64,000 bases of DNA, taken from positions 47,268 to 111,267 of IMG/VR virus record IMGVR_UViG_3300037346_000220; one strand, written 5' to 3'. The stretch is from a virus. The notes under the pieces are model-generated. The model had not been told where the DNA came from. It worked only from the letters and a program-made list of their open reading frames with translations, and did no database searches. The position numbers and the translations under genes were made by a program. Each line of letters starts with the position of its first letter. Position 1 is the stretch's first letter. Positions 2 through 29,500 of this stretch are shown one piece after another.

Positions 2-187
2 ATAGGAACTCAATTTGCTTTTATTCAAACTGGAACTGGAAGCATTGTCTTCTCCCCTATAGAGACTAATACAACTACAATCTTAAGCAAGAACAATAAT
101 AGGAAAACAGCATCACAGATCTCTCAGGCTATTCTGGTCAAAAAAGAAGCAGACGTCTGGATGCTGATGGGCGACCTTACTGCCTAG
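2..187 (+). CDS. 3' end of a fibre/adaptor protein (truncated by the window edge) ending in the conserved 'W...GDL' domain
   Basis: Manual translation: IGTQFAFIQTGTGSIVF...RKTASQISQAILVKKEADVWMLMGDLTA*. It matches the C-termini of 5443..7293 and 9019..10704. Confidence 0.8.
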   Translation: MGTQFAFIQTGTGSIVFSPIETNTTTILSKNNNRKTASQISQAILVKKEADVWMLMGDLTA

Positions 188-195
188 GAGGCAAG

Positions 196-1011
196 ATGAT
201 AGGCATAGGCGGAAAGTTTGCATCCTCTAAAGGAATGGTCGCAGTACCTTCAATTATAGGATTGACAGTATCCCAAGCTCACATAGCAATCCAGAATTCT
301 GGACTTGAAATTGGTACTCAGGGAAGCACTAGTGGGTCCTCAAGTCAAAACGGAAAACTAGCCTCTCAAACAACGCCTTCTGGAACTCTTGTAGATTACG
401 AAAGCACCATAGGGTTTGCTGTATACCTCTATACTGCCCCAAGCGCCCCCTCAGGACCTTACCTAGTATCTACAAACACTGGTCCTAACTGTGGTACAGT
501 TCTTGCAACAGGAATCATTTCACAAACCTGTGTGGGAAACAATTATGTAACTATTGTAGGAACTCAGAACGTAACAACGTACCGCTATAATTACTCCGAT
601 GGAACCTCCTCCTCTGGATACTCAGTTTGCTTTTCAGGACAGCAAGAATCATCAGTACCCTCTCAAGCCTGTGCTGATCAAAATGCCCCACTGCCCCCAC
701 CGCCTGTCCCCTCTAACTGTACATCATGCACCAATGGAAGCTATACTTACTCGGGATCTGATTCAGGTTGTGCCTCTGGTAACGCCTGGTACAGCGTCTG
801 TATTTTTAACTCTGGCTGCCAACCAGCCTCATCAACATCTAGAAACTGTGTCCCAGTTCCACGTCCACCAGAGCCCGTAAAATGCAAATGCACGGCTGGC
901 TGTGGGGCTACCTGGAGTGGTGCCTGCACTGGCGGCACCCAAGTCCAAGCCATAAGGTGCACAGCCTGTGACTGTAGCTCATCTGTACGAAGCTGGACCA
1001 ACCCCTGCTAG
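196..1011 (+). CDS. Putative virion tip protein with a PASTA-like N-terminal domain and a Cys/Pro-rich C-terminal region (18 Cys)
   Basis: SD aggagg upstream. VPSIIGLTVSQA...QTTPSGTLV is a PASTA-like pattern. It has poly-Pro linkers and a WSGACTGGTQ segment. Confidence 0.7.
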   Translation: MIGIGGKFASSKGMVAVPSIIGLTVSQAHIAIQNSGLEIGTQGSTSGSSSQNGKLASQTTPSGTLVDYESTIGFAVYLYTAPSAPSGPYLVSTNTGPNCGTVLATGIISQTCVGNNYVTIVGTQNVTTYRYNYSDGTSSSGYSVCFSGQQESSVPSQACADQNAPLPPPPVPSNCTSCTNGSYTYSGSDSGCASGNAWYSVCIFNSGCQPASSTSRNCVPVPRPPEPVKCKCTAGCGATWSGACTGGTQVQAIRCTACDCSSSVRSWTNPC

Positions 1012-2862: not shown

Positions 2863-3309
2863 ATGGCTAGAGTATCAATCCCTTATGTAAAGACCAGGTT
2901 CGAGACTGGCGACCGCCCAGAACAGGCGGACTATCAAGACCTGATAGACACAGCAGCAGGCCAGGCAACTGATCTGGGAACCGCTGGAAACAACGAGAAC
3001 ACTATTGCTGGTATTGAAAACATCACGGTAATTGACAGCTTTGACGCTAGTCAGTGGAGACTTGTTAAGTACTTGGTTTCAATCTCAAAGACTTCATTCG
3101 GAGACAATAAGTTTTACGCAACAGAACTTTCCATACTGGTAGACGGCACAGATATATCTGTCACAGAGTACGGAGTAATAGACAATGATGGGAATATGGG
3201 CACCATCGATGTTTCTAGAACTGGAGATACCGTTGCATTGACGGTGACCCCTGATTCAGTAATCAAGCCAGTGACCGTGCGATTTGCTCGCATGGGTCTC
3301 AAGGCCTAA
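2863..3309 (+). CDS. Fibre-associated adaptor protein ('TEYG' domain)
   Basis: WRLVKYLVSIS...ISVTEYGVI aligns with the C-terminal domain of 3327..4883 (YRTAEFVVKS...ISITEYGVV). Confidence 0.65.
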   Translation: MARVSIPYVKTRFETGDRPEQADYQDLIDTAAGQATDLGTAGNNENTIAGIENITVIDSFDASQWRLVKYLVSISKTSFGDNKFYATELSILVDGTDISVTEYGVIDNDGNMGTIDVSRTGDTVALTVTPDSVIKPVTVRFARMGLKA

Positions 3310-3326
3310 CTAGGAGATTAAAAAAA

Positions 3327-4883
3327 ATGGCAACAGTTAATAAAGATTTCAAGGTAAAAGCTGGCTTAGTCGTTGAGGGTGCCTCAGGTACCATTAATGG
3401 CTATAGCGTACTAACAGAGGCTCAGGCCAGCATAGACTTCATCGTAAACACTATTGGGGGAACAGCTACATCAACATCGACTCCAAATACTGTAGTGAAG
3501 CGTGACGAGAACTCAGACTTTTCAGCAGGAGTAATAACTGCAGACATAGTCGGAAGCCTTACTGGTGACGTAACTGGAAACTCTGATACCTCAACAGCTT
3601 TAGAGACTCCGAGGACTATCTCCGTAAGTGGCGATGCTGTCGGTTCTGTATCTTTTGATGGAACATCTGACGTATCAATTGCAATCACCTTAGACTCAGC
3701 ATTTGCTACCGATGTAGAGGTTGGTACCTCTAAGAGTGAAGCTGTAACCGAAGCTGCTTCTTACACAGACGGAGAAATTTCTACTCTAGAAGCTTCCTTG
3801 CAGTCTTATGCCGATCTAGCTCAGTCAGATGCAGAGACTTCTGCTGCCTCTTACACAGACGCTCGTGAATCAGCTATTACCTCTGCATACCAAAGCTACA
3901 CAGATACAGCAGAAGCTGATGCAAACACATATGCAGACTCTGCAATCGCAGCTCTAATCGGAGGAGCCCCAGAGCTTCTAGACACTCTTAATGAACTAGC
4001 AGAGGCTATTGCCGATGACCAAAACTTCTCAGCAACAGTAGTTAACGACATTGCAGCAGGTCTTGTAACAGCTAAGGACTACACAGACACCCGTGAAGGT
4101 CTTATCACTACAGCCTACCAGGGTTATGCAGACACTGCTGAAGCCGATGCGATCTCTACCGCAGCTTCAGATGCAACTGCTAAAGCCGACACAGCAGAGT
4201 CAGAAGCAAATAGCTACACTGACACCGAAATTGCCACAGAGGTTAGCAGTCGTAACACAGCTATTACTACAGCTGTTGACGCCCTAGATACAGACGCTAT
4301 AGAGGAAGGTTCTTCAAACTTCTATTTCACTGATGAAAGAGCTCAGGATGCTGTCGCAGCCTCCATTGCTGCTGGTTCACACCAAAACATTACTGTGACT
4401 TACGATGATGCTCTTGGCTCTCTAACTCTTGTTGCAGAAAACGGAGTAGCAGATTCTGACACGGACGATTTGGTAGAAGGTTCCACAAACTTGTACTTCT
4501 CAAGTGCACGTGCGGTGGCAGCTCTGGAAGCAGTAGTCCCTAACTTTACAGAGGTAGACCTTAACTCAGTTGCAACTCAAGTAGCTGCTACTCAAACAGT
4601 CTCTACCGCAAGTCAAGTCGTAGGATATTCCTTTAGCGGTACTTCCTACAGGACAGCAGAATTTGTAGTAAAATCTGCTTCAGGTGTGCACACAGAAGTT
4701 TCAAAGGTTCTTTTAACTTTGGACACAGCAAACAATATTTCCATTACCGAGTACGGAGTAGTAGGAACTAATGGTTCTCTATCAACTCTTTCTGCAGGTA
4801 TGGATGGGAACACGGTTCAGCTACTAGTTACAACCCTTAACAACGGCACAGATGTTACAGTTGTTGGTACACTAGTAGTATAG
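3327..4883 (+). CDS. Fibre shaft protein
   Basis: Acidic Ala/Thr-rich helical repeats (AxxYTD), an APELLDTLNELA motif, two EGSxNxYF repeats and a C-terminal TEYG domain. SD aggag. Confidence 0.75.
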   Translation: MATVNKDFKVKAGLVVEGASGTINGYSVLTEAQASIDFIVNTIGGTATSTSTPNTVVKRDENSDFSAGVITADIVGSLTGDVTGNSDTSTALETPRTISVSGDAVGSVSFDGTSDVSIAITLDSAFATDVEVGTSKSEAVTEAASYTDGEISTLEASLQSYADLAQSDAETSAASYTDARESAITSAYQSYTDTAEADANTYADSAIAALIGGAPELLDTLNELAEAIADDQNFSATVVNDIAAGLVTAKDYTDTREGLITTAYQGYADTAEADAISTAASDATAKADTAESEANSYTDTEIATEVSSRNTAITTAVDALDTDAIEEGSSNFYFTDERAQDAVAASIAAGSHQNITVTYDDALGSLTLVAENGVADSDTDDLVEGSTNLYFSSARAVAALEAVVPNFTEVDLNSVATQVAATQTVSTASQVVGYSFSGTSYRTAEFVVKSASGVHTEVSKVLLTLDTANNISITEYGVVGTNGSLSTLSAGMDGNTVQLLVTTLNNGTDVTVVGTLVV

Positions 4884-4918
4884 TTTCATACAACAATAGA
4901 GGCAGGAGGAAGCAATAG

Positions 4919-5377
4919 ATGGCGCTAAGCGAAAAAGACTTTAAGGTCAAAAATGGAATCCAGGTATCTGGAGACGCTGTAATTGGTGGAACTATAACCG
5001 CAGCATCTCCAACATTGGGCAGCCATGTTGTAACTTTGGAATATTTTACAGAGAATGCAAACTCTGGCTTTAAGGCACAATCTGTTGCTCCTGTTTCCCC
5101 TACTGATGGAGACCACTACTTCGACACTGCTACCCAGAGACTAAACGTTTTTTACGATGGCTCCTGGATAACTATGGCCTCAGTAGAAGATACCCAGAAT
5201 ATCCCACAACACATTCACGACACTTCGATTGACGGTTCTGGGCTAATAGTTTCAAGATTTACAGATGCAGCATCCCCCACCAGTCCACAGGGAGCACCAG
5301 TGGATGGCGGAGGAGTTTCAACCACATCATGGGATTCAGTACTTGACGGTGGCTCAGTTTTAGATAACTTCAATTAG
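4919..5377 (+). CDS. Fibre linker protein
   Basis: N-terminal KDFKVKxG shared with 3327, a PxSPxxGDxYFD motif, and C-terminal tandem DGG motifs. Confidence 0.65.
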   Translation: MALSEKDFKVKNGIQVSGDAVIGGTITAASPTLGSHVVTLEYFTENANSGFKAQSVAPVSPTDGDHYFDTATQRLNVFYDGSWITMASVEDTQNIPQHIHDTSIDGSGLIVSRFTDAASPTSPQGAPVDGGGVSTTSWDSVLDGGSVLDNFN

Positions 5378-5388
5378 CCTAAAAAAGT

Positions 5389-5397
5389 TGGTATAAT
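5389..5397 (+). promoter_or_regulatory. Extended -10 promoter for the fibre at 5443
   Basis: Intergenic TGgTATAAT. Confidence 0.6.
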
Positions 5398-5442
5398 AGT
5401 AAAAGGCTTAAACGTGACACCCTAAAAGTAGGAGAATGGACT

Positions 5443-7293
5443 ATGGCAACAAGGATGCAACAGAGGCGTGGTACCGCAGCAGAGTGGACCAGCATTAACC
5501 CAGTTTTAGCTGGCGGAGAGATCGGCTATGAGTCAGACACTGGCCGTTTCAAAATGGGCGATGGAACAAACAATTGGGAGAACCTGTACACTTACGGCTC
5601 TATAGACTCAATTCTTGACGCAGCCCCAGAAACTCTTAATACTCTAAATGAGCTGGCAGCAGCTATAAATGACGACCCCAGCTTCTACACAAATGTCGGT
5701 CTAGCAGTCTCAACCGCAAAGACCGAAGCTATATCTGAAGCAGGAACATATGCAGACCTCCTTATTGGAGATGGAACTGTCGACGGAACATCTGGAAATA
5801 CAGTAACAGCCAGAATTCAATCTGCGATCAGTGACCTTGTTGGTGATGCACCTGGAGCACTAGACACTCTAAACGAGCTCGCAGCAGCACTTGGCGATGA
5901 CTCAAACTATGCAGCAACCATAACACAGATTGTCTCTAACATCCAGCAAAGCGTAATTGACGCAACAACGTCTCTTAACGAAGGTATAGCCCTTGCCAGA
6001 ACAGATCTGGGAGCAGATATTGACTCTGGAATCGCAGATGAAGTAACAAACAGAGACAGTGCAATCTCAGCAGCTGTAGACCTGGAGGCAACTGCCAGAG
6101 GCTTAGCCATCGCAGCAGATAGCTCAGACACCCTAGATGCGTACACTTTGGCAGTAGCTGCCGAGGCAACGGCTAGAGAAGCAGCAATCACCGACCTAGG
6201 CACAACGATAACTACAGCATATCAGGACTACGCCGATACAGCCGAATCTGATGCAATTGCGACCTCTTCGACAGACGCAAGCAGCAAAGCAGATGACGCA
6301 CAATCAGCTGCAGAGCTAACAGCTTCAATAGCTTTGACGTCTCACAATGACGCTACTACGTCTGTGCACGGTATTGCAGACACCTCGGTGCTTGCCACAA
6401 AAACAGACGTGAGTACGGCACAGACAAATGCTGAGAGTTATGCAGATGGCCTTTCAGGTAACTATGATGCAGTAGGTTCAGCTTCTACAGCTCAGGATGC
6501 AGCAGAGTCTACTGCAGCCTTAGCTCTGACAGCGCATAATGACGATACTACCTCGGTGCACGGAATTGTGGATACCTCAAAACTAGTTCTTACAGAGGCT
6601 GCAAGTCAGACAATCACTGGAGACTTTATTGTTACTGGAGATCTGACTGTTTCGGGAACGACAACCACAATCGATACTGCAAATTTTGAAACAACTGACC
6701 CTTTGATTGCACTTGGAGAAGGAAACGTTACAAATGCAGTTGACCTTGGTTTTGTCTCAACATTCAATGACGGAGTCCAGCAAATAACTGGTTTCGCCAG
6801 AGATGCGTCCTCTGATACTTGGAAGTTGTTTAAGGGAGTTACTGACGTTCCAACTACAACTATTAACTTCGCCCAGGGATCCTTGGATGACCTATCAGTT
6901 AAAGATTTGTCTGCTGCTGTCGTAAATGCTGCTTCTGTGGTATTTGCAGACGGAACAACTCAAACTGTAGCAGCAGTGCCTTCCCTGACAGTATTCTCAG
7001 AAAAGACTGCTAGTTACACTCTAGACACCATCGACCACAAGGACAACTTGGTTGAGGTAAACTCTGGTAGTGCAACTACATTTACTATCCCAACGAACGC
7101 CTCTTTGGCCTGGCCAGTAGGAGCTTCAATGGATATTCTTCAGACTGGCTCTGGTCAGGTAACTATTTCCCCAGCAAGCGGAGTAACTCTAAACTTTACT
7201 CCTGGAAATAAGTTACGCACTCAGTGGTCATCTGCTACAATACTTAAAAGGTCTGCAGACTCATGGGTTGTCTACGGCGACCTAACAGCTTAA
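5443..7293 (+). CDS. Fibre protein with an Mtd_N-like N-terminal domain and a C-terminal 'W...GDL' domain
   Basis: MQQRRGTAAEW...LAGGEIGYESDTGRFKMGDG (Mtd_N-like), two APxxLxTLNELA motifs and two HNDxTTSVHGIxDTS repeats; ends WVVYGDLTA. Confidence 0.8.
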   Translation: MATRMQQRRGTAAEWTSINPVLAGGEIGYESDTGRFKMGDGTNNWENLYTYGSIDSILDAAPETLNTLNELAAAINDDPSFYTNVGLAVSTAKTEAISEAGTYADLLIGDGTVDGTSGNTVTARIQSAISDLVGDAPGALDTLNELAAALGDDSNYAATITQIVSNIQQSVIDATTSLNEGIALARTDLGADIDSGIADEVTNRDSAISAAVDLEATARGLAIAADSSDTLDAYTLAVAAEATAREAAITDLGTTITTAYQDYADTAESDAIATSSTDASSKADDAQSAAELTASIALTSHNDATTSVHGIADTSVLATKTDVSTAQTNAESYADGLSGNYDAVGSASTAQDAAESTAALALTAHNDDTTSVHGIVDTSKLVLTEAASQTITGDFIVTGDLTVSGTTTTIDTANFETTDPLIALGEGNVTNAVDLGFVSTFNDGVQQITGFARDASSDTWKLFKGVTDVPTTTINFAQGSLDDLSVKDLSAAVVNAASVVFADGTTQTVAAVPSLTVFSEKTASYTLDTIDHKDNLVEVNSGSATTFTIPTNASLAWPVGASMDILQTGSGQVTISPASGVTLNFTPGNKLRTQWSSATILKRSADSWVVYGDLTA

Positions 7294-7315
7294 TAACTAG
7301 GAGAAGAGAAAAGAC

Positions 7316-8107
7316 ATGGCAAAAAAAGAAGCAGGCGGTAGGTCAGCATCACAGAATGACTTCCTGGAGCCACTAACACCAGTAAGCGTAACAGCTTCCA
7401 ATGTCGGCACAAGCCGAGTATACAACGACGGAGCTGCCACAGTTTCATTTTCACTTCCAGCTAACTCACCAGCTGCAACTTCTTATTTAGTTACAGCCTC
7501 TACTGGACAAACGGGGACTGGATCTTCATCTCCAGTAACGGTAGAAGGGCTGGGTTCTTCCAGCACTCCAACTTTTACAGTTGTAGCTTCTAACGCATCT
7601 GGCGACTCAGGTTCCTCATCCGCTACAACGGCTATTACAATAACCACAGTTCCAGCAACCATGGCAGCACCATCCGTTAGCACTCCAACTCCTTCATCAA
7701 GCACAAACCAAACAGGAACATCTACAGACTCAGTATCCTGGAGTGCACCAAACAATGGTGGATCCTCAATAACCACTTATCGCTGGACATCCTCTGATGG
7801 AAAGACGGGGACAGAAGCTGGAACATCTGTGTCAGTAAGCCAAGAGGGTGGCTCTGCTCAAACATATTCTGTTCGTGCAGAGAACTCTAACGGATCTGGA
7901 TCTTACTCAAACAACTCTTCAAGCATAACCACTTTTGGATTTACTCCATTTAGTTTTGCTCCTTTTGGGTTTACACCATTTAGCTTTACTCCATTTAGCT
8001 TTACCCCCTTTGGAGCTTTTGGGTTTACCCCCTTTGGAGCTTTTGGGTTTACCCCGTTTAACTTTGCTCCTTTCGGATTCGCTCCATTTAACTTTTCACC
8101 CAGGTAA
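7316..8107 (+). CDS. Putative tip protein with two fibronectin-III-like domains and a 57-aa F-x-P-F repeat tail
   Basis: VSWSAPNNGGSSITTY...YSVRAENSNGSG is an Fn3 signature. The C-terminal tail has ten F[TAS]P motifs. Confidence 0.8.
   Translation: MAKKEAGGRSASQNDFLEPLTPVSVTASNVGTSRVYNDGAATVSFSLPANSPAATSYLVTASTGQTGTGSSSPVTVEGLGSSSTPTFTVVASNASGDSGSSSATTAITITTVPATMAAPSVSTPTPSSSTNQTGTSTDSVSWSAPNNGGSSITTYRWTSSDGKTGTEAGTSVSVSQEGGSAQTYSVRAENSNGSGSYSNNSSSITTFGFTPFSFAPFGFTPFSFTPFSFTPFGAFGFTPFGAFGFTPFNFAPFGFAPFNFSPR
7934..8104 (+). repeat. Coding tandem repeat with a 15-nt unit (F-[T/A/S]-P-F-[S/G/N]), including an exact 24-nt duplication
   Basis: Units such as tttactccatttagc vary at synonymous positions. 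tttaccccctttggagcttttggg occurs at 8000-8023 and 8024-8047. Confidence 0.95.
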
Positions 8108-13340: not shown

Positions 13341-16300
13341 ATGTCTCAACCATCGAATCTTTATGCAGAAAAGATATTTGCAGAACACCCCATAGCTCTC
13401 TGGGCCCTAGAAGAGCAGGTAGACTATCTATCATTAGTCTCTGATCCCCAAAGAGACTTCTCCCAATGGCAGCCAGTAAATTCTGAAGTCTTGTCACCAG
13501 ATAGTTCAGCCCTAGACTATCCAGCTCCTTACCCACTTTCACCCTTGGGTCTAATGTCGTTAACGACAAGCACCTCTGGGTTCACGTCCTTTGGCGCAGC
13601 GTCCCCCCTGGCATATCCAGTTATGGTTGATTCGTTTTCTTCTACGAAGGACACCTTCTGCATAGGCATTCATCTTCTAGCGGTCAGTCAAACAGTGCTC
13701 TCTATTTCAGTAGGGTACACTTATGTAGACTCAGAGACAGGCCTGCCCGTTACCAAGGCAACGTCCTTTCCAGTATCGTCAAACACTAACTGGTCTTTCA
13801 TATCAGAAACCTTTTCCGTTTCAGAAATAAACTCAGAGTCGTTCTACCCCTCAATCTCTGTAGTCTCGGCCCACCCAGAATCAATTACAGGTCCAATAAC
13901 TCACCTAGTCTATGTCAATGGTCTTACCGTAGGGCAAAACTCAGAAGAGTTCAACTACGGGTCATTAGGAATTTCTCCATCTGGTCAAGAAGAAAATATC
14001 TTTGGTGTAGAACCCAGCGACATCCTAGTTCCGTCCGATCAGTATGGGATAGTAGGGAGAAAAGCTTACTATGTCGTAAAAGGCGGAAACAATCTAGTCT
14101 CTCAGAACTCAGGGATGCCTCTTGTTTATGGCGCTCAGAATGCTACAGTCATGACAAATTCTCAGGGAACCCCCAACCTACTGATACCAGGATATGGGTT
14201 TATGAATGATTCAGGAAGAAACAAGGAGTACACTTTTGAAATGTGGTTTAGACCAAACTCTTTTGCAACATCTTCCACTAGAATTTTTGGACCAGTAGCC
14301 TCAAATGACGGGATCTACATAGATGGAGCATTCTTAAGGTTAAAGCTAGGAGGTTCTATAGCATCACACTATGTAGGCGATTCCTTCAGGCCTATGCTCG
14401 TAAACATTAAAACTCTAAAAGACTCAGCTTCCTTGCTTATTAACGGAGAGTCGGTAGCAACTATAACGTTTGATTCAGCCACCATTCCTCTACCAGCTCC
14501 TAAACTTGATGGAAAGAATCAAGACTTTTTAGCATTCTATACTTCAGACGCTGTTCCTCAGATTGATGTAGACTGCGTGGCCATCTACTCATACTCAGTT
14601 CCTTCCTTAGTAGCTAAAAGGCGAATGGCCTACGGCCAAGCTGTAGAGTTTCCAGAAAACGTAAACACGGCATACAGTGGGACAACGGCGTACTTCGATT
14701 ATAACTTTGCAGATTACACAAACAATTATTCATACCCAAATATCGGAAGATGGTATCAGGGAATTTCAGACAACCTTGTTTTTGACAATGATGTCCTCTC
14801 AACGCCAAGCTATGGGCTCCCACAGCTAGTTATGCAGGATGAGACAACTTATAAGAATTGGGTTTCTGAAAACTCTGATAATCAGGTGGTAGACGAAGAC
14901 CTGTTCTTCAGCTTTAGCTCACCTGGCTACCTGTACTTTGAAAAACTTAGAATGCTTACTCAAGATACCAGGGCTATCTATATGGTTTTTGAAACCTCAG
15001 GATACTCAGAGAACAAGCAGGTATTGCTTAGAGTTGAAGACAACTTGACAACCAACAACTTCGAGGTATCTGTTACTGGATCAGATGTGTCTTACACCCT
15101 AAACTACCAAGGGGTAGAGACTTCCCTATACACGGAGTCAGACCTGATAGCAAACACAAAAGCCTTTGCAGGGATAGACATAGACGGTTTGGCAAAGTAT
15201 TTCGGAAGAACCTTTACTGCATTCTTTGGTAACAAGTCACGCCTCAGTGTTTATGTTGGATCAGACAAAGACTTTGAGAGCCCATTCTCAGGAAAGATTT
15301 ACTCTATAAATTTCTGTACCAACAAAAACTTTCAGAAGGTCTCAGCCTTTTTCCAAGATCCAGAGATCATTAGCACAGACTTTGTTGCTGACGCAGGAGA
15401 TAACTACTTTGGCACTGACGCATCGACATGGTTCAGAACCTTTGACGGAGGCTTTGTAGATTCTTTTAGCCTAGATGGAGCAGCTAGCCACATAGCGAGT
15501 TATAGCCTAAGAGCTAAAAGCATTTTTGATAATTACTCTATAGACATCCTAGCAGATTCTTATTGGGAAGATTACATTCCCCTAAAGCATTTTGCACAGT
15601 ATGTCACCAACAGTGACTCAGGATCTTATTATGACTTGGATTTTTTGCAGTTTAACGTGGGATACCCAGCAATTAGAAAGTTCTTAGCTGGAAGTTTTGA
15701 TACGTCTAATAGCTCCGTAAAGAGTTATATAACTTTTCAGTACTTAGCTACAGGAGCGACAGCGCAACCAGGATACTTTACAGAGACCATGAGCGCACCA
15801 CAGAGCGGTATTGTAGAGCCTGGAGATAACTGGATGACAACAAGGTACGAGGTTGTCAATGGTTCGATCATCTACCTTCCAAAGAACATAGACTTTTTAG
15901 ACATAGCTTTGGTGACAAGCTTAGAGATAGTTTCCCAGGGCATCAGTTTAGATAAGATAAAGATAAAAAGCCTAGAGTATGCATCTCAGGCTTTTAATGG
16001 AGACACCTCAAACCCTATTGGTACTCGGTTTGGTCTCCCTGTGTTTCCCTACAGAAAATACAACCTTTACTACGACTATAAGACTAGGAACCCATACAAG
16101 ATATACAAGAGGGGCTCTCCTTATCTTTACTTGACGTCAGACAGCGGAATCAAAAAGGTGGGAGAGCAAGAGAGGGTCACAGACAGAGGGCTTTCAATAC
16201 CAGTTAACTTAAACCTATCAGAAAAGTATAGGGTGGTATCTATGCAAATGGCAATGAGGTTTGACGAAGAATCTTTCCCCGACAAGGTCAGAGTATTTGA

Positions 16301-16877
16301 GGTTGAAGCAAAGAACTCATATATTAAGTTTTACTTAGCCAAGGTTGGAACTTCAGGAAAGAGGGCAAAGCTGTATGCCGTCAATGCAGCAACAGGCGCA
16401 GTAAACGACGGTGTCGCTTTTTATCTTAATGGAAAGCTTGTCCGTCAACCTGTGATCAATCTAGACCAATGGAACATGCTAGGAGTAACATTCTCGACAG
16501 TTCTCAATTTTGACTCATACTCTGGGGGTATCAGAATTACTGGTCCTCTAATGGTTAATAATGTTTCGCAGTATCAGTCTACAAACCTACAGGAAATTCA
16601 GGAGCAAGACTTTAGGCAATGGTCTGAGGTCGCCACTAACCCAGCAGACATATCAGGACTTGGCTGGAAGTTCTGGAGCAATACATATATTTGGAATGGG
16701 GTTCTAGTAAAGTCCTCTACAAATATCTATGGAATAACTCCTGACGATATATATAGGACTTACATAGGGACAAATAAGATAATCGTTGACGACAATCAAT
16801 CAATATCTATAGGAAATTACGAGTATTCAGCTTATGCTGACATCAAGTGGACCACATCTGTTGCCACTCCCGTATAA
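13341..16877 (+). CDS. Large virion structural protein with ConA/LamG-like beta domains
   Basis: 1178 aa and beta-rich, with EHPIALWALEE, YTFEMW and LLINGE patterns. It sits between the fibre genes and the portal. Confidence 0.6.
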   Translation: MSQPSNLYAEKIFAEHPIALWALEEQVDYLSLVSDPQRDFSQWQPVNSEVLSPDSSALDYPAPYPLSPLGLMSLTTSTSGFTSFGAASPLAYPVMVDSFSSTKDTFCIGIHLLAVSQTVLSISVGYTYVDSETGLPVTKATSFPVSSNTNWSFISETFSVSEINSESFYPSISVVSAHPESITGPITHLVYVNGLTVGQNSEEFNYGSLGISPSGQEENIFGVEPSDILVPSDQYGIVGRKAYYVVKGGNNLVSQNSGMPLVYGAQNATVMTNSQGTPNLLIPGYGFMNDSGRNKEYTFEMWFRPNSFATSSTRIFGPVASNDGIYIDGAFLRLKLGGSIASHYVGDSFRPMLVNIKTLKDSASLLINGESVATITFDSATIPLPAPKLDGKNQDFLAFYTSDAVPQIDVDCVAIYSYSVPSLVAKRRMAYGQAVEFPENVNTAYSGTTAYFDYNFADYTNNYSYPNIGRWYQGISDNLVFDNDVLSTPSYGLPQLVMQDETTYKNWVSENSDNQVVDEDLFFSFSSPGYLYFEKLRMLTQDTRAIYMVFETSGYSENKQVLLRVEDNLTTNNFEVSVTGSDVSYTLNYQGVETSLYTESDLIANTKAFAGIDIDGLAKYFGRTFTAFFGNKSRLSVYVGSDKDFESPFSGKIYSINFCTNKNFQKVSAFFQDPEIISTDFVADAGDNYFGTDASTWFRTFDGGFVDSFSLDGAASHIASYSLRAKSIFDNYSIDILADSYWEDYIPLKHFAQYVTNSDSGSYYDLDFLQFNVGYPAIRKFLAGSFDTSNSSVKSYITFQYLATGATAQPGYFTETMSAPQSGIVEPGDNWMTTRYEVVNGSIIYLPKNIDFLDIALVTSLEIVSQGISLDKIKIKSLEYASQAFNGDTSNPIGTRFGLPVFPYRKYNLYYDYKTRNPYKIYKRGSPYLYLTSDSGIKKVGEQERVTDRGLSIPVNLNLSEKYRVVSMQMAMRFDEESFPDKVRVFEVEAKNSYIKFYLAKVGTSGKRAKLYAVNAATGAVNDGVAFYLNGKLVRQPVINLDQWNMLGVTFSTVLNFDSYSGGIRITGPLMVNNVSQYQSTNLQEIQEQDFRQWSEVATNPADISGLGWKFWSNTYIWNGVLVKSSTNIYGITPDDIYRTYIGTNKIIVDDNQSISIGNYEYSAYADIKWTTSVATPV

Positions 16878-16895: not shown

Positions 16896-17264
16896 ATGGA
16901 AGAGAATAATAACGGGCAAATTGGTAAATCAAAGATTACAGTCTTAAACAAGGACTACCCCTGGGGTATTTATTTTTGGAAGAAAGCAAACGGGAAGCCT
17001 TATACAGACGGCCACGGAAGTGTTTTAAACATTCCTTCACACAAAGGTGACGTTCTTCAGCTTCAGAAGCTAACAAACGAAGCGACAGCCCTAGGCCATG
17101 GTGATGGATCTTACGAGTTTATAGCAGGTGCTGGCCGAGTTTCAGAAGAAGAGTATTCTGAGCAGGTAGATCGAATGAAGCAAGGACTCCTTCCAAACCT
17201 TAATGACTTAGGAGCTGTCCAAGCAGCCAAAGACACCATATCTCTTTATGGAGATGAGGAATAA
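16896..17264 (+). CDS. Hypothetical protein upstream of the portal
   Basis: ATG lies 7 nt after TGgTATACT. It is coupled to the portal gene by TAATG. Confidence 0.65.
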   Translation: MEENNNGQIGKSKITVLNKDYPWGIYFWKKANGKPYTDGHGSVLNIPSHKGDVLQLQKLTNEATALGHGDGSYEFIAGAGRVSEEEYSEQVDRMKQGLLPNLNDLGAVQAAKDTISLYGDEE

Positions 17265-18865
17265 TGACTGACTACGAAGTTCCATTTATTCAGGCAAACT
17301 TAGATCAAGAACAAAAGTCCGAAGACTTATTTAAAAAGCAAGACCCGTTTAACAAAAGCTGGGACATGCTTAAGGGCTTGGTCAACATCGAGCCAAATTT
17401 TAAGCGTAGAACTAGCAGAATCTCCAAAATTGCACCACCTACAGACAACTATCTCGCAACAGCAAGAGCAATTCCTACAGGTGAAGGCGCAGCCTCAAAA
17501 GAGATTAATCCTGGAAGTGTATACAATAATGGCTACGGACTCTTTGACGTAATCACACCACCATGGAATCTTTACGAGCTAGCGAACTACTATGATACCT
17601 CGTTTGCGAACCACGCAGCTATTGACGCAAAGGTCGAAAACATTGTGGGCCTGGGTTATGATTTTGAGACAAACCAGAGAACAATGCTGAAGCTTGAGAT
17701 GAACAACGACAAAGAGGCCACAGCAAGAGCTAGGAAGAGAATTCAGAGAGTAAAGGTTGAGCTTAGAGATTGGCTAGAGAACCTAAACGATCAAGACTCA
17801 ATGACTCACACACTCATGAAGTTCTATACAGATGTGCAAGCAACTGGAAATGGCTACCTAGAAGTAGGTCGTAAAACAAACGGAGACATTGGTTATGTGG
17901 GACACATCCCAGCTACGACCATGAGAGTACGTAGACTCCGTGATGGTTACGTACAGATTATTGGTCAAAAGATTGTGTACTTCAGAAACTTTGGGGCAAA
18001 GAACAAGAACCCTATAACCACTGACCCAAGGCCCAATGAAATTCTTCATTACAAAGAGTACTCGCCTCTTAATACGTTTTACGGTATTCCAGACATAATG
18101 TCTGCCATATCTTCCTTACACGGAGATCAACTTGCAAGTCAGTACAACATTGATTACTTTGCTAACAAAGCAACTCCAAGATACATTGTTACTCTTAAGG
18201 GTGCAAAGCTTTCAAGCGATGCCGAAGATAAGCTATTCAGATTCTTACAGACTAGCCTAAAAGGTCAGTCCCACAGAACACTGTACATTCCTCTACCAGG
18301 AGATACAGAGAATAGCAAGGTAGAGTTTAAAATGGAACCCATAGAGAACGGTGTCCAGGAAGCCTCATTCAATGAGTACCGAATGCGAAATCGTGACGAT
18401 ATCCTTGTAGCCCACCAGGTACCTCTTTCTAAGATTGGAGGAGGAGACGGAGCAAGCATTGCAGCAGCTCTCGCTCAAGACCGTACGTTTAAAGAGCAGG
18501 TAGCCAGACCAGCACAGACAAATCTAGAAAAAATGCTCAACAGGATTGTTCGTGAAAAGACAGACATCTTAGAATTAGCTTTTAACGAACTAACTCTGAC
18601 GGATGAAATTGCTCAGTCACAGATTCTAGAGACATATGTAAAGACTCAGGTCATGACTCCTAACGAAGCAAGAGAGGCCTTAGGATTGCCACAACGACCA
18701 GATGGAGATAAAATGTTTGACTTATCTCCTCGCCAAGCAACCGACGCAAGAGCCAACCTTGCACAAAACCGTGAAAGAGATAGTGAAAGATCTAATAACC
18801 AGGCAGATTCATCTGGTACAATAGATGGTAGGAATGCACAAGGAGAGGGTAGGGCCAGTAACTAG
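17264..18865 (+). CDS. Portal protein
   Basis: TGNGYLEV, EILHYK...YGIP, YFANKATP, ILVAHQVP and MTPNEARExLGLP motifs of HK97/PBSX-type portals. Confidence 0.93.
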   Translation: MTDYEVPFIQANLDQEQKSEDLFKKQDPFNKSWDMLKGLVNIEPNFKRRTSRISKIAPPTDNYLATARAIPTGEGAASKEINPGSVYNNGYGLFDVITPPWNLYELANYYDTSFANHAAIDAKVENIVGLGYDFETNQRTMLKLEMNNDKEATARARKRIQRVKVELRDWLENLNDQDSMTHTLMKFYTDVQATGNGYLEVGRKTNGDIGYVGHIPATTMRVRRLRDGYVQIIGQKIVYFRNFGAKNKNPITTDPRPNEILHYKEYSPLNTFYGIPDIMSAISSLHGDQLASQYNIDYFANKATPRYIVTLKGAKLSSDAEDKLFRFLQTSLKGQSHRTLYIPLPGDTENSKVEFKMEPIENGVQEASFNEYRMRNRDDILVAHQVPLSKIGGGDGASIAAALAQDRTFKEQVARPAQTNLEKMLNRIVREKTDILELAFNELTLTDEIAQSQILETYVKTQVMTPNEAREALGLPQRPDGDKMFDLSPRQATDARANLAQNRERDSERSNNQADSSGTIDGRNAQGEGRASN

Positions 18866-26503: not shown

Positions 26504-29500
26504 ATGGCTGATTTCGAAGCTAAATTCGGCGTAAACATAGATACAACGGCAGCTCTTGCATCGATTAAGCAACTTCAGTCTCAAATATCAACCTTTCATC
26601 GGCAGCTTGCAAAGGGGTCGGCAGTCAACACTGCTAGCCAACAGAACCTACAACGTAACTTAATATCCGACATAAACTCATCTGGTAAGTTTAATGCCAG
26701 TATGCAAAGAGTGCATTCCACCACAGAGAACTTCACGAATGCTCTTGAGAAAAACAAGCTGTCTATGGGGCAGTACTTTAGATACGCTGGTGGGGCATCT
26801 AAAACCTTTGGTCGTAAATTCATTAGTGAGTTTAACACCATAAACAAGGTAGCACGAGAACGTGTAAAAACCCTGCAGACCCAATACATTGCCATGGGTC
26901 GAGACGCTAATGGGGCACTACAATCTATAGCAGTCAGACCTTTGAGTCTGGACATGAACAATCTCGCCACTAAAACAGCTATAGCAGCCCAGAAGCAACA
27001 AATCTTTAACCAACTGCTTAGGCAGGGGTCTACCAACCTACTGAACTTCGGAAAGAATACTCAGTGGGCTGGTAGACAGCTTATGGTTGGTTTTACTATT
27101 CCTCTAGCAATCTTCGGATCCATGGCTGGTAAAACATTCATGAAGGTCGAAGAAGAAGCTATTAGATTTAGGCGTGTATACGGAGAGCTCTTCACCCCAC
27201 CAGAAGAAGCCAACGCCATGATTGACCAGCTTAAAGAGTTGGCCTCAGAGTTTACCCAGTATGGAGTATCCCTAGAATCAACCCTGGCACTAGCCTCAGA
27301 CGTAGCTGCCATGGGTAAGACAGGGGCAGACCTAATGGCCCAAGTATCAGAAGCTACAAGGCTGTCCGTGCTGGGATCTGTGGATCAAGCAAAAGCCCTA
27401 GAGGCTACGATCTCTGTAACAAACGCTTTCGGAATCTCGGCAGAAGACTTAGCAGGAAAGATAGACTTTCTTAACGCTGTAGAGAACCAGACAGTGACGG
27501 CCATTGAAGACTTAACCATAGCTATTCCAAAAGCTGGTCCAGTTATCCAACAGCTTGGTGGAAGCGTAGAAGACCTAGCCTACTTCTTGACCGCCATGAA
27601 AGAGGGTGGCATCAATGCCTCAGAAGGAGCTAACGCTCTAAAGTCGGGTCTTGCCAGAATAATTAACCCAACCATGAAAGCATCAGAAATGATGAAGGGT
27701 CTGGGAATTAACATTAATGGTATTGTTGAGGGCAACGCAGGAGACATAAAGACAACCGTAACAGAGCTTGCTTTTGCGCTAGATGAATTGCAGCCTTTGC
27801 AAAGATCGAGAGCTATTGAAGAACTTTTTGGAAAGTTTCAGTTCGCAAGAATCTCAACCCTATTCCAGAACATAACAAAAGAGGGTAGCCAGGCAGCAAG
27901 GGTTCTAGATTTAACTAGAGCTTCAACTCAAGAGCTTGCAAACCTATCTTCCAAAGAGCTTGGAGCTGTTTCAGAGTCAACCACCTTCGCATTCAAGAAG
28001 GCTTTTGAGGACTTGAGGATTGCAATTGCTCCTATTGGAGAGCAATTCATCAAAGCAGCCACACCTATTATTCAGTTTGCTACTAAACTTCTTAGCCAAT
28101 TCGATAAGATGGGTGACGGAGCAAAGAACTTTGTCGTAATCTTAACAGCTGTCCTGGGACTAATAGCACCCGTAGCTCTGATGACGTTTGGTCTTCTTGC
28201 TAACGGCGCAGCAAACATTCTTAAAGGTTTTGCAGCTCTAAGAACTATGTTCCTAAGAACAGCTCAGGACACCAGCGTACTGGGAAGCCAAACTCAGTAC
28301 CTGACACAGGAGCAACTGATAGCCAACGCAGCATCAGCATCTCTTGAGCAGTCACACATGAGGCTAACTCAGCAGTTCACATCCGAGACTACAGCTGTAT
28401 CCCTATTGACAGCAGCATACGAAAAAGCAGCTCTCGCTGCATCAAGGCTAACAGCAGTTCGTCCCATGCCAACATCCATCGGAAAAGGTGCGGTCAAAGG
28501 ATACGCTTCTGGTGGAATAATCTCAGGTGAGGGAACAGGGACTTCAGACTCTATCTTGGCGCAGGTCTCTAATGGAGAAGCTATCATACCAGCCAAGGTA
28601 GTAAGCAAGAATCCAGGATTTTTTGCTAAGCTTATTTCAGGAGGAATCCCAGGATTTGCTAAAGGCGGAATTCTCGGAGGTAAGGTCAACGTCGGAGGCA
28701 AAGAGTATGGTGTCCCAGATGGAAGAAGTTCAGGAGCCATGCAGTCCAGAATACAAGGTCTCGCCGATGCAGGGACATCCCTTGACTCCCTGACCTCTGT
28801 TATGGATAAGCTAGAGGCCCAATCAAAATTAACCGCAGCAGCCCTTAAAGCAGAGGTCAGAGCCAGAGGCCTGTCTCCAAAAGGTGGCCCAAGCGAGGTA
28901 CAGAGAGCTCACCTTACCCTGCCTACAAAAAATGCAGACGGATCTATGGGTCTTTCTGGTCTAACCAGAGAAATGTCCAGAGAGCAAAACATAGCACTTA
29001 GGACTGGGCAGAATAAGGATCAGTTCTTAAAAGAGTATTCTTCAAGAAAAGGTGGCCTGACCGCTGCAGGAGAAGCTGGCATGCGACAGACGGGAGCCCT
29101 AGGACCCAGGGAATCTATGTCTTCGGATATGGTAGCTACCATGCAACAGCTTGATGACGAAATAGGAAAGTTAGCCCACGAGCTCTCTGTAGACGGTTTA
29201 GTATCTGACGCCGAGCTAGCAAAAGCTGCAGACATCGTAATCAGAAAAGCAGAGTCTAAGTCAGGGAATACGGGAACTGCAGGCAGTGCTCTAAGAGAAA
29301 GACAAAAAGCCCAAGTAGCTACTAGGTCAGCAATATCATCAAAGATGAATGCGGAAAACATTAGGTCTGGAAAAACTTCTCTTCGAGGTAATGGTGTCAC
29401 TCTCGTTGATTCAAATGGAGCAGTTCAAGGCAAACTGCACAAGGCTGATGCTGATAGGGCTCACGCTGCTAGATCTGCTCAGGAGAAAAGAGAGATCACA

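Follow-up and report, generated by a model that had tools for sequence, protein, structure and literature searches.

A tail fibre predicted to assemble in series through gp9/gp34-type and DGG/Mtd_N joints in a siphovirus-type actinobacterial phage

In the long tail fibre of phage T4, a small trimeric socket protein (gp9) takes the N-terminus of the fibre protein gp34 coaxially into its C-terminal beta-sandwich, and the fibre itself is composed of several gene products whose gene order (34-35-36-37) is also their order of assembly. A different arrangement is found in Bordetella phage BPP-1 (Bbp9/Mtd) and in the HylP hyaluronidases of streptococcal prophages, where an N-terminal Mtd_N cap is present on a trimeric receptor-binding or enzymatic protein and the Mtd_N gene directly follows a tail-protein gene with a short h-D-(L)-G-G-x-x C-terminus. 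Mtd sits at fibre ends. In XD-domain branched complexes (CBA120 TSP1-4, G7C gp66/gp63.1 and Klebsiella KP32-type), small trimeric beta-sandwiches and short conserved N-termini join receptor-binding proteins. A literature search that covered few subscription journals returned no paper on serial sockets or on DGG/Mtd_N contact.

The window analyzed here is a stretch of 64,000 nt from the IMG/VR virus record IMGVR_UViG_3300037346_000220, in which five ORFs on the + strand (P0001 to P0005) compare with these systems. P0001 (2863-3309, 148 aa) is a gp9-like socket protein that matches phrog_967 ("baseplate wedge tail fiber protein connector", E 1.5e-7); residues 1-45, modeled with low confidence, are the presumed virion anchor, and residues 46-148 form a TEYG beta-sandwich (ISVTEYG at residue 101) equivalent to the C-terminal domain of T4 gp9. 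P0002 (3327-4883, 518 aa), the first fibre segment, starts with the plug MATVNKDFKVKAG (residues 1-13), continues as an Ala/Thr-rich shaft of varying length among relatives (499-786 aa) and ends in a TEYG socket domain (~430-518, ISITEYG at residue 474) that shares 32% identity with P0001 over 71 aa (E 5e-8). The 152-aa adaptor P0003 (4919-5377) starts with MALSEKDFKVKNG, of which residues 1-12 are the plug (MALSEKDFKVKN), carries an invariant HIHDT at residue 98 and ends with PVDGGGVSTTSWDSVLDGGSVLDNFN, a tandem tail with DGG at residues 129 and 143 and DNFN as its last letters. P0004 (5443-7293, 616 aa) is the distal fibre, with an Mtd_N cap at residues 6-42 (Pfam PF18454, E 1.4e-10, 41.4 bits against a gathering cut-off of 26.3 bits), a shaft and a C-terminal GDL domain (~515-616) terminating in ...WVVYGDLTA. 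After a gap of 22 nt follows P0005 (7316-8107), the "tip", which has a short basic N-terminus with SQNDFLEP, two fn3-like domains and F-x-F-x-P aromatic repeats from residue 207. Re-reading the sequence confirmed the place of every motif that the initial annotation had claimed for these five ORFs. Compared with cultured phages at the DNA level, the region matched only 77 nt of the P1/P7 gpS constant part, and tblastn of P0003 against cultured phages gave no match.

We propose that genes 2863-7293 probably encode a serially assembled appendage of an uncultured, siphovirus-type actinobacterial phage, resembling the T4 long tail fibre. P0001 would act as a small trimeric socket, its N-terminal ~45 residues presumably fixed to the virion, and the first ~12 residues of P0002 (M-x4-KDFKVKxG, as in T4 gp34) would dock coaxially on its TEYG domain. 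The second socket copy at the C-terminus of P0002 would accept the identical type of plug on P0003, whose C-terminal DGG tail would in turn be bound by the cap (Mtd_N) of P0004, as BPP-1 mounts Mtd on its Bbp9 fibre. The GDL domain of P0004, an XD1-type beta-sandwich, may itself be the tip that binds glycans, or may be where the hypervariable follower P0005 is seated. Underlying this proposal are in silico results on folds, motif identities, adjacency in independent lineages and a controlled complex model, which paired the C-terminus of P0002 with P0003 and covered one of the four proposed contacts; we infer all physical contacts, the trimeric state, where on the virion the appendage attaches (at the tail tip or the neck) and what P0005 does. 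A multi-segment appendage with gene order matching assembly order had been suggested in the initial annotation and is supported for P0001 > P0002 > P0003 > P0004; the joint to P0005 is putative.

The fold of the P0001 TEYG domain (AF2 pLDDT >90 for residues 50-148) points to T4 gp9. Residues 35-148 had gp9 as their top match (1qex 163-284; VIA Z 13.0, rmsd 3.3 A, 106 aa, 20% identity), Foldseek returned gp9 with an E of 7.7e-6, and the gp9-like chain of the KP1 baseplate (9f4a_LA) matched with Z 10.9. By fold comparison, the domain is the eight-stranded beta-sandwich of gp9 residues ~165-288. A search of PDB sequences with the TEYG profile gave no match. Assignment as a T4 gp10-like XD2/XD3 branching domain was considered and dropped, the fold search having returned gp9 and tailspike C-terminal domains. 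On the plug side, the N-terminus of T4 gp34 (MAEIKREFRAEDGLDAGG, from NC_000866) is in register with MALSEKDFKVKNGIQVSG, with K/R6, D/E7, F8, K/R9, G13, L/I14 and G18 in common, and the pattern M-x4-[KR]-[DE]-F-[KR]-x3-G-[LI] was found at the start of P0002 (MATVNKDFKVKAGL), P0003 (MALSEKDFKVKNGI) and T4 gp34 (MAEIKREFRAEDGL).

Modeling of cognate against control pairs, a check proposed in the initial annotation, was run for the P0002 C-terminus and P0003 and favoured the cognate pair. Three copies of P0002 residues 389-518 with three copies of P0003 scored ipSAE 0.91, 0.91 and 0.92, compared to 0.00 for the best of three controls. Among solved complexes, 58 of 80 attain this ipSAE mark, as do 2 of 110 mismatched pairs; the calibration is only rough here because custom alignments were used. 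Contacts agreed 100% between runs (partner pLDDT 69) and placed the P0002 TEYG strand 468-481 (ANNISITEYGVVGT) against P0003 residues 1-12, with socket interface residues 459, 468-481 and 488-492. The score is the model's own confidence and could partly reflect generic beta-strand addition. Within P0003, the plug residues are more conserved than the remaining residues (0.87 vs 0.67), and N, E, Y, G and T of the P0002 socket strand reach 0.89-1.0 even in variants 26-33% identical overall; averaged over the whole P0002 interface, conservation is barely higher than in the rest of the domain (0.67 vs 0.64).

Gene adjacency was assessed in ~70 distinct related IMG/VR loci, where a plug-start ORF followed 120/120 distinct TEYG-ended ORFs, compared to 13 of 1,083 other ORF pairs, a coupling much more frequent than chance would give. 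All 13 exceptions follow divergent P0002-type domains that lie below the reach of the profile and still have the (T/V)E(Y/F)G strand. Since these loci share ancestry, the 120/120 count alone is not independent evidence; independent support for the pairing is provided by a second lineage and by cultured phages. The second lineage (L150-L164) comprises relatives of P0158 (36-52% identical) on contigs of up to 354 kb with different synteny. Here, a plug-start ORF came after 22 of 23 distinct TEYG-ended ORFs, as against 2/51 other ORFs with such a start; the ORF after the 23rd begins with MTTYQTDFKVKNS. One of these loci (L158) has as many as three sockets in a chain, and the unrelated locus L150 repeats the order socket protein > plug...socket > small plug protein > Mtd_N fibre. 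The small plug proteins ahead of Mtd_N genes in this lineage end in ...YADLNLP or ...TLDLGSF, not in DGG. The adjacency expected from the initial annotation was conserved in related loci and in an unrelated lineage, and its TEYG/KDFKVK joint gains support from the gp9 fold match, the gp34 motif, the controlled complex model and this second lineage. Overall, a socket and plug of the T4 gp9/gp34 type, predicted to be used twice in series, is well supported.

The TEYG domain also occurs in tandem, with 5-7 copies in some proteins, and is therefore not always a socket. TEYG-domain representatives numbered 404.

The second joint, DGG tail to Mtd_N cap, is not a curated family and was recognized by a rule: the upstream gene ends with h-DGG within its last few residues. 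P0003 follows this rule, ending with ...VLDGGSVLDNFN directly upstream of the Mtd_N gene P0004, and an Mtd_N gene came next for every P0003 homologue. Six unrelated Mtd_N fibres with a second Mtd_N gene downstream themselves end in L(V/T)LDGG(G/T)(V/L). For cultured phages, annotated CDS ends were combined with a six-frame count of frames of at least 50 aa. The annotated gene directly upstream of Mtd_N ended in h-DGG-xx-stop in 7 of 10 phages sampled, while 3/10 Mtd_N genes had no upstream DGG gene, and among 1,052 frames from 14 cultured-phage loci only 8 were DGG-ended, all 8 preceding an Mtd_N gene. Among cultured phages, the joint recurs in those of Arthrobacter, Gordonia, Microbacterium, Clavibacter, Streptococcus and Xanthomonas; in Arthrobacter phage BruhMoment, three successive genes form such a chain (gp34 > gp35 > gp36), and two tandem DGG motifs are found in P0003 and in gp29 of Arthrobacter phage Popper. 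Adjacency in seven cultured phages of different hosts, together with Bbp9/Mtd of BPP-1 as the known analogue, upholds the DGG/Mtd_N pairing of the initial annotation, and we consider a predicted joint of tail and cap to be well supported by adjacency and analogy. The T4 gp37 N-terminus gave no Pfam match as Mtd_N; the DGG tail may have kin in the T4 gp36 end (...VQDFGYY) and the gp34 segment VFDGG.

A third joint, between the GDL domain and the tip, had been suggested as well and was not established. The GDL domain of P0004 (AF2 pLDDT 91) is a nine-stranded mixed beta-sandwich of the type seen in XD1, the gp9 middle domain and the StcE-CpaA module, and its VIA matches were 9ny6_C (197-292, Z 14.3; the C-terminal domain of the Pa223 capsid spike), 9f4a_Le (9.7), 7rej_A (9.2), 6o38_A (8.7) and 4dny_A (7.0). 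The aligned part of CBA120 TSP4 (7rej_A residues 79-182, 21% identity) corresponds to XD1 (residues 80-178), and a docking jellyroll of the XD2/XD3 type was not recovered. Glycan-binding proteins were represented by StcE (Z 7.0) and CpaA (6o38, Z 8.7), and the only match among PDB sequences was a chance-level one to Afp1 (E 0.23). For TSP4 and gp9, XD1 is described as a spacer; in StcE and CpaA, glycans are bound by this fold (PMC8825819). Two further GDL-ended proteins with followers lie in the window, all on the + strand. One, whose start precedes the window, is represented by its 61-aa C-terminal end (2..187, ...VWMLMGDLTA; 211 aa in an identical contig) and is followed by a 271-aa protein (196..1011) with an N-terminal PASTA domain (Pfam E 3.8e-6, above cut-off) and a Cys-rich C-terminus. 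The other is P0007 (9019..10704), a second Mtd_N...GDL fibre, with the Cys-rich follower P0008 (10706..11731) starting 2 nt past its stop codon.

These observations bear on an alternative that we rate close to, and slightly below, an even chance, in which the GDL domain is the distal glycan-binding tip and the follower (P0005, P0008 or the PASTA protein) is a chaperone or assembly factor, or an independently attached adhesin. Tail-fibre assembly genes come after fibre genes in many phages. The XD1 fold, with its spike and glycan-binding relatives, is consistent with such a tip, and there are at least three follower families, with no N-terminal motif in common. Likewise, among cultured phages of Gordonia, Shewanella and Agrobacterium and in PhiJL001, the position of the GDL domain is C-terminal in every case, and the genes that come next are not homologues of one another. 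However, a follower gene is always present and tightly coupled to the GDL gene (gaps of 0-34 nt or overlapping stops), and GDL domains group by follower family rather than by carrier protein type, a pattern confounded by shared ancestry. Members of the tip family, moreover, combine ~20 conserved N-terminal residues with hypervariable C-ends, as in docked secondary receptor-binding proteins, and JKSyngboy gp38 carries the annotation "minor tail protein"; these points count against the alternative.

Serial assembly also has to be weighed against branching, in which P0002 and P0003 would each occupy separate P0001-type sockets, gene order would not strictly be assembly order, and the two DGG motifs of P0003, or a segment of P0006, would carry both P0004 and P0007 in a forked or multi-fibre apparatus. 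We regard this as unlikely, even though the P0002 and P0003 plugs are almost identical, differing in their family consensus only at positions 5, 10 and 12. Because of this near identity, nothing found explains why P0002 does not add to itself, and of the "three orthogonal pairs" in the initial annotation, two joints are supported while their orthogonality is weakened by the plugs and the GDL/tip pair is unproven. The plug sequences likewise offer no explanation for a fixed chain length. Branching could further account for the tandem DGG motifs of P0003 and Popper gp29, for BPP-1 fibres reported to carry two Mtd trimers each (PMC2408619), and for the presence in the window of two Mtd_N fibres and a single DGG-tailed adaptor. 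The N-terminus of P0007 matches Mtd_N-type PHROG families, and P0009 (8154-8825), directly upstream, has no DGG tail. A look-alike of the P0003 tandem tail, DAG...W...FDGG, lies inside P0006 (13341-16877, +, 1,178 aa) at residues 683-709 (15387..15467, +, ADAGDNYFGTDASTWFRTFDGGFVDSF); it is present in 3 of 5 homologues, with a clean indel in the other 2, and is a possible docking site for the second Mtd_N fibre. Against branching, the P0002 socket domain is kept in all ~70 relatives, always directly ahead of P0003, which is hard to explain if it were empty, the tandem motif persists in relatives with a single Mtd_N fibre, and the L112/L144 contig carries the P0006 segment but no orphan Mtd_N fibre within the stretch examined. 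Least probable by far is that the shared termini reflect common descent and the folding needs of trimeric fibres (N-terminal nucleation strands, C-terminal knobs) with each protein anchoring alone, for although the TEYG fold is also a terminal domain of Acinetobacter and Klebsiella tailspikes without a known partner and the gene after the TEYG-ended fibre of cyanophage S-SM2 has no plug, this would leave unexplained the plug-start genes almost exclusively behind socket-ended genes in two unrelated lineages, the 8/8 DGG-ended frames before Mtd_N genes and the complex model relative to its controls, and it is at odds with the known T4 gp9/gp34 and BPP-1 Bbp9/Mtd arrangements.

Returning to serial assembly, we suggest tentatively, and with somewhat less than even confidence, that all tailed-phage morphotypes share a few reusable, position-coded joints: the gp9 socket with the gp34 plug, DGG with Mtd_N, and perhaps an XD1-type end with a follower peptide. 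If so, fibre length, order and branching could be read from gene termini, and a socket fused to the distal end of a fibre would be a device for turning a single attachment into an extendable chain. Should these joints prove real, sequence alone could serve to reconstruct the receptor-binding apparatus of uncultured phages (which protein sits on which, and which is distal), shaft and tip exchange by recombination at conserved termini would be accounted for, and defined, portable connectors would become available for swapping receptor-binding modules between laboratory phages. The gp9/gp34 principle, known from one myovirus, would then reach a siphovirus-type actinobacterial phage and include serial use in one fibre.

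Compared to T4, the predicted appendage shares the socket fold (Z 13.0) and the register of the gp34 N-terminal motif, and it would share a small trimeric socket protein with coaxial fibre docking, a fibre of several gene products in assembly order, and a small adaptor ahead of the distal fibre (gp36 in T4, P0003 here). In contrast to T4, a further copy of the socket domain forms the distal end of a fibre segment, so that the joint would be used twice in series, the socket gene adjoins the fibre genes (T4 gene 9 is far from gene 34), and no gp35-like monomeric knee is present. The gene set is of siphovirus type, with a 2,279 aa tape measure and neither a sheath-sized nor a T4-type baseplate gene among the ORFs scanned, which are part of those in the window. 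T4 gp9 consists of an N-terminal coiled coil, an XD1 middle domain and a C-terminal domain and sits on baseplate gp7, whereas P0001 has only ~45 low-confidence N-terminal residues and the C-terminal domain, with no XD1 domain; it would work like gp9 and is not a full gp9 orthologue. P0004 resembles the BPP-1 and HylP proteins in its N-terminal cap and in the gene that precedes it, but the tail here is tandem (two DGG and DNFN) and carried by a dedicated adaptor that also has a gp34-type plug. The GDL domain has the XD1 fold of CBA120 TSP4; in the XD-domain complexes, however, the docking surfaces are XD2 and XD3 at the N-terminus of the anchor spike, whereas the XD1-like domain here is C-terminal and its partner putative. 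By description, a hypervariable follower acting or sitting on the C-terminal domain of a fibre can be likened to T2/S16-type gp38 on the gp37 tip and to Tfa genes, although the follower genes here encode fn3 or PASTA proteins whose ends are of aromatic-repeat, Cys-knot or Hint-like type. What is new is that both joints are combined in a single predicted chain and that its carrier is a siphovirus-like phage of actinobacteria.

All open reading frames and motifs described in the initial annotation were present in the run of five consecutive fiber-type genes on the + strand (P0001, 2863-3309; P0002, 3327-4883; P0003, 4919-5377; P0004, 5443-7293; P0005, 7316-8107) and in P0006 (13341-16877). P0001 (148 aa) has a domain around ...I(S/T)(V/I)TEYG... 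(the socket) that recurs at the C-terminus of P0002 (32% identity across 71 aa, E 5e-8), and the M-x4-KDFKVKxG motif (the plug) opens P0002 (MATVNKDFKVKAG) and P0003 (MALSEKDFKVKNG). P0003 ends in PVDGGGVSTTSWDSVLDGGSVLDNFN, P0004 has an Mtd_N match above the Pfam threshold and a C-terminal domain finishing in YGDL (the GDL domain), and P0005 begins 22 nt after P0004. A HIHDT motif in P0003 (residues 98-102; window 5210-5224) was invariant across 43 of 43 aligned homologues. Metal-binding HxH sites occur in the T4 gp37 and gp12 fibers, which an HxH motif on a trimer axis would recall.

Searching 1.84 billion representative proteins identified the TEYG domain in 404 representatives, nearly always at the extreme C-terminus and joined to N-termini of the plug type, the Mtd_N type, the 'LKKSSVAG...GELAINYADGKLYYK' type or the P0001 type. 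Residues 50-148 of P0001 were modeled by AlphaFold2 (53-row alignment) with pLDDT above 90, and structural comparison ranked T4 gp9 first, through its C-terminal domain (Z 13.0, rmsd 3.3 Å, 106 residues, 20% identity). The next matches were a baseplate chain of Klebsiella phage KP1 that resembles gp9 (Z 10.9) and, at Z 8.4-9.8, C-terminal domains from several Acinetobacter and Klebsiella tailspikes. The N-terminus of T4 gp34 (MAEIKREFRAEDGLDAGG, from the T4 record) shares residues with the window plugs in register (K/R6, D/E7, F8, K/R9, G13, L/I14 and G18). Given the fold match and this motif, the TEYG/KDFKVK pair most likely corresponds to the gp9/gp34 joint. Complex prediction for P0002 residues 389-518 with P0003, in three copies each (six chains, a separate alignment each), gave scores of 0.91, 0.91 and 0.92, compared to 0.00 in all three controls (the partner was exchanged in two and the socket in one); the mark applied is one that solved complexes reach in 58 of 80 cases and mismatched pairs in 2 of 110, a calibration that is only rough here given the custom alignments and six chains. 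Contact agreement between runs was 100%, with pLDDT values of 69 for the partner and 95 for the other chains. The confident interface of the model comprised P0002 residues 459, 468-481 (ANNISITEYGVVGT) and 488-492 on the socket side and P0003 residues 1-12 and 15 on the plug side, i.e., the predicted contact falls on exactly the two motifs that the initial annotation had paired. Conservation was higher in the plug (0.87) than in the rest of P0003 (0.67) and, averaged over the whole interface, barely higher in the socket (0.67) than in its domain (0.64); residues N, E, Y, G and T of the socket strand were 0.89-1.0 conserved, even in P0002 variants with only 26-33% overall identity.

Gene adjacency was assessed in 138 loci from two IMG/VR scans, which represent a single lineage with inherited synteny and provide no independent replication. 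The order g2112, g2525, P0001-type, plug...socket, plug-bearing P0003-type, Mtd_N fiber and follower was kept in all sufficiently long loci, and each of the 120 distinct socket-ended ORFs preceded a plug-start ORF (120/120). P0001 was 76-100% identical across loci where P0003 identity was only 40-53%, and P0002 homologues kept both ends around a variable middle (499 to 786 aa). The lineage shows selection acting on the protein termini. A second lineage of 15 loci was assembled from relatives of P0158, a plug...socket protein recovered in the representative-protein search; these are different phages (contigs up to 354 kb) with different flanking genes, and the relatives are 36-52% identical to each other. 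Here a plug-start ORF directly followed the socket-ended ORF in 22 of 23 distinct cases, the 23rd follower starting MTTYQTDFKVKNS, and plug-type starts were found in only 2 of 51 other ORFs (Fisher's test p ~2e-15, the loci being interrelated). One locus (L158) encodes three consecutive socket-ended proteins of 989, 1,068 and 1,573 aa, with a plug after each of them. Another (L150) reproduces the whole order of the window, running from a socket protein through a plug...socket protein of 1,033 aa and a small, 187-aa plug protein to an Mtd_N fiber that Pfam confirms. The adjacency expected of cognate partners was conserved in both lineages; that of the second lineage, together with the gp9 fold match, the gp34 motif and the controlled complex model, supports the predicted socket/plug joint. 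Counter-examples do exist: the socket-ended fiber of cyanophage S-SM2 is followed by an unrelated gene, and tailspikes bear a fold of the gp9 C-terminal type as a terminal knob. As 5-7 tandem TEYG/gp9-C-type domains occur in single chains (e.g., P0024, 1,033 aa; P0089, 1,215 aa), the domain can probably also act as a repeated bead besides a terminal socket.

For the second joint, tblastn with the P0004 cap matched 631 cultured-phage records, ten of which were sampled for the end of the upstream gene. A DGG end was observed in the annotated gene just before the Mtd_N gene in Arthrobacter phages BruhMoment (gp35, ...LTVDGGTP) and Popper (gp29, 65 aa, ...TTLDGGNATSTYDGSFNFDGGSAA, tandem like P0003), Xanthomonas phage FoX4 (gp33, ...EYVIDGGGA), Gordonia phage Huffy (gp28, ...GADFDGGEL) and Microbacterium phage Hubbs (gp39, ...NDGLDGGTP), in the gene upstream of Mtd_N in Clavibacter phage 33 (...EYVLDGGGA), and before the HylP hyaluronate lyase in Streptococcus phage Javan521 (gp48, ...QIILDGGNQ); it was absent in 3 of the 10 records (cyanophage ACG-2014d, crAss001 and Gordonia phage PatrickStar). 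In 14 cultured-phage loci with 1,052 stop-to-stop frames (minimum 50 aa), a DGG-x(1-3)-stop end was seen in only eight frames, and an Mtd_N gene came immediately after 8 of 8. BruhMoment gp34 is the eighth of them and produces a chain gp34 > gp35 > gp36 (L165, 1676-5202) in which gp34 (68 aa) ends VIDGGTP, gp35 has an Mtd_N start and the LTVDGGTP end, and gp36 has an Mtd_N start; this cultured phage is a ready experimental system. Within the lineage of the window, an Mtd_N gene followed each P0003 homologue, and relatives with two Mtd_N fibers in series provided six distinct first fibers (280-702 aa), which beyond the cap are unrelated to P0003 and which all end ...L(V/T)LDGG(G/T)(V/L). In BPP-1, founder of the Mtd_N Pfam family, bbp9 (...LADLGGIA) is followed by mtd, an adjacency resembling that of the window, and Mtd is located at the tail-fiber ends (PMC2408619). 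From these adjacencies, which support the proposed pairing, we infer a contact between DGG tail and Mtd_N cap.

The second Mtd_N fiber of the window (P0007, 9019-10704) is preceded by P0009, which has no DGG tail; P0007 may dock on the second motif of P0003 or on the DAG...DGG segment of P0006 (residues 683-709, ADAGDNYFGTDASTWFRTFDGGFVDSF), both putative sites. This segment was kept in 3 of 5 P0006 homologues and missing as an indel in the other two. P0006 itself (1,178 aa) adjoins the portal gene on its upstream side, has a weak Laminin_G_3 match only (E 0.004) and no PHROG match, and is conserved in four further viral contigs (28-42% identity). P0009 (8154-8825, 223 aa), with His-rich motifs, lies after the first follower and ahead of the second Mtd_N fiber and matches phrog_2696 with no Pfam match. 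Segments of T4 gp34 (...WSSFVQVFDGG... ~50 residues before its end; L149 14380-14679) and gp36 (...VQDFGYY at its end; 15869-16534) faintly resemble the W...FDGG...DNFN tail of P0003, by homology or chance.

The third proposed joint, between the GDL domain and the next gene, is general as an adjacency but unproven as a plug/socket code. Every GDL-ended gene of the own lineage has a tightly coupled follower, and in cultured Gordonia, Shewanella and Agrobacterium phages and PhiJL001 a C-terminal GDL domain precedes non-homologous genes at 0-5 nt. Followers belong to at least three families: an fn3 'tip' with a conserved SQ(A/S)(S/A)NDFL-P start, a PASTA-domain type and the Cys-rich type of P0008 (10706-11731). 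GDL domains group by follower family (8 label changes vs 33 in shuffles; tree search incomplete), which can be explained by shared ancestry. The AlphaFold2 model of the domain (pLDDT 91) has an XD1 fold and matched the Pa223 capsid spike C-terminal domain (Z 14.3), a KP1 baseplate chain (Z 9.7), CBA120 TSP4 residues 79-182 (Z 9.2, 21% identity), CpaA (Z 8.7) and StcE (Z 7.0). XD1, the fold of the gp9 middle domain, is described as spacing domains apart in TSP4 and gp9 and as binding glycans in StcE and CpaA; the docking faces of TSP4 and gp10 are XD2 and XD3 (PMC8825819). A GDL tip that binds glycans, with a chaperone or adhesin encoded by the next gene, fits at least as well as a docked tip.

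Hypervariable C-terminal modules are common to followers across families, and unlike modules are swapped among their C-ends (window 7934-8107; L005-L137): F-x-F-x-P repeats in the window, and PFFP repeats, FYN repeats, (GV)n runs and Cys-rich knots, with the same kinds on fn3-type and PASTA-type followers. Many 'tip' and PASTA followers of related phages end in a Hint/intein-like module whose last residues, at the extreme C-terminus, are ...F(F/I)AGNI(L/V)VHNK (e.g., L069:12857-14140, L109:1147-2343 and L014:13580-15202), with Pfam matches all below threshold (Intein_splicing, E 1.2e-6; Hint_2, E 2.7e-4; PT-HINT, E 3e-3). For a protein of a virion appendage, an end with autoprocessing or ligating activity would be unusual, if true.

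The window, which derives from an uncultured phage, also encodes a portal (17264-18865), a tape measure (26504-33343, 2,279 aa), prohead protease, major head protein, minor tail proteins, DnaB, PolIII alpha subunit and ribonucleotide reductase. The phage looks like a siphovirus because no sheath-sized gene was found from the head genes to the tape measure. An actinobacterial host would fit both the PASTA domain encoded in 196-1011 and the occurrence of GDL and Mtd_N relatives in phages of Gordonia, Arthrobacter and Microbacterium. With the fiber genes located upstream of the portal gene, either the tail tip or the neck may carry the appendage.

Overall, the first two joints are supported as predictions, the first from fold, motif, modeling and gene neighborhoods and the second from gene neighborhoods and the BPP-1 analogue. 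A gene order that mirrors the order of assembly is likewise supported for P0001 through P0004. The initial annotation had described three orthogonal pairs; two joints are supported, and orthogonality is unproven because the P0002 and P0003 plugs are nearly identical (family consensus MATVNKDFKIKSGL and MATVEKDFKVKNGL, differing at positions 5, 10 and 12). The appendage would work like the T4 long tail fiber (gp9, gp34, gp35, gp36 and gp37) with a BPP-1-type Mtd attachment. Unlike T4 gp9, P0001 lacks a coiled coil and an XD1 domain and is not a full orthologue, and no T4-type baseplate genes were found around it among the ORFs scanned. The literature searched, mostly outside subscription journals, gave no description of serial gp9-type sockets or of a DGG/Mtd_N contact. 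In contrast to the published cases found, a fiber segment of the window (P0002) bears a fused socket domain at its distal end, and the first joint would therefore be reused in series; both joint types are combined in one chain via a dedicated 152-aa adaptor (P0003), and this chain is carried by a siphovirus-type, probably actinobacterial, phage.
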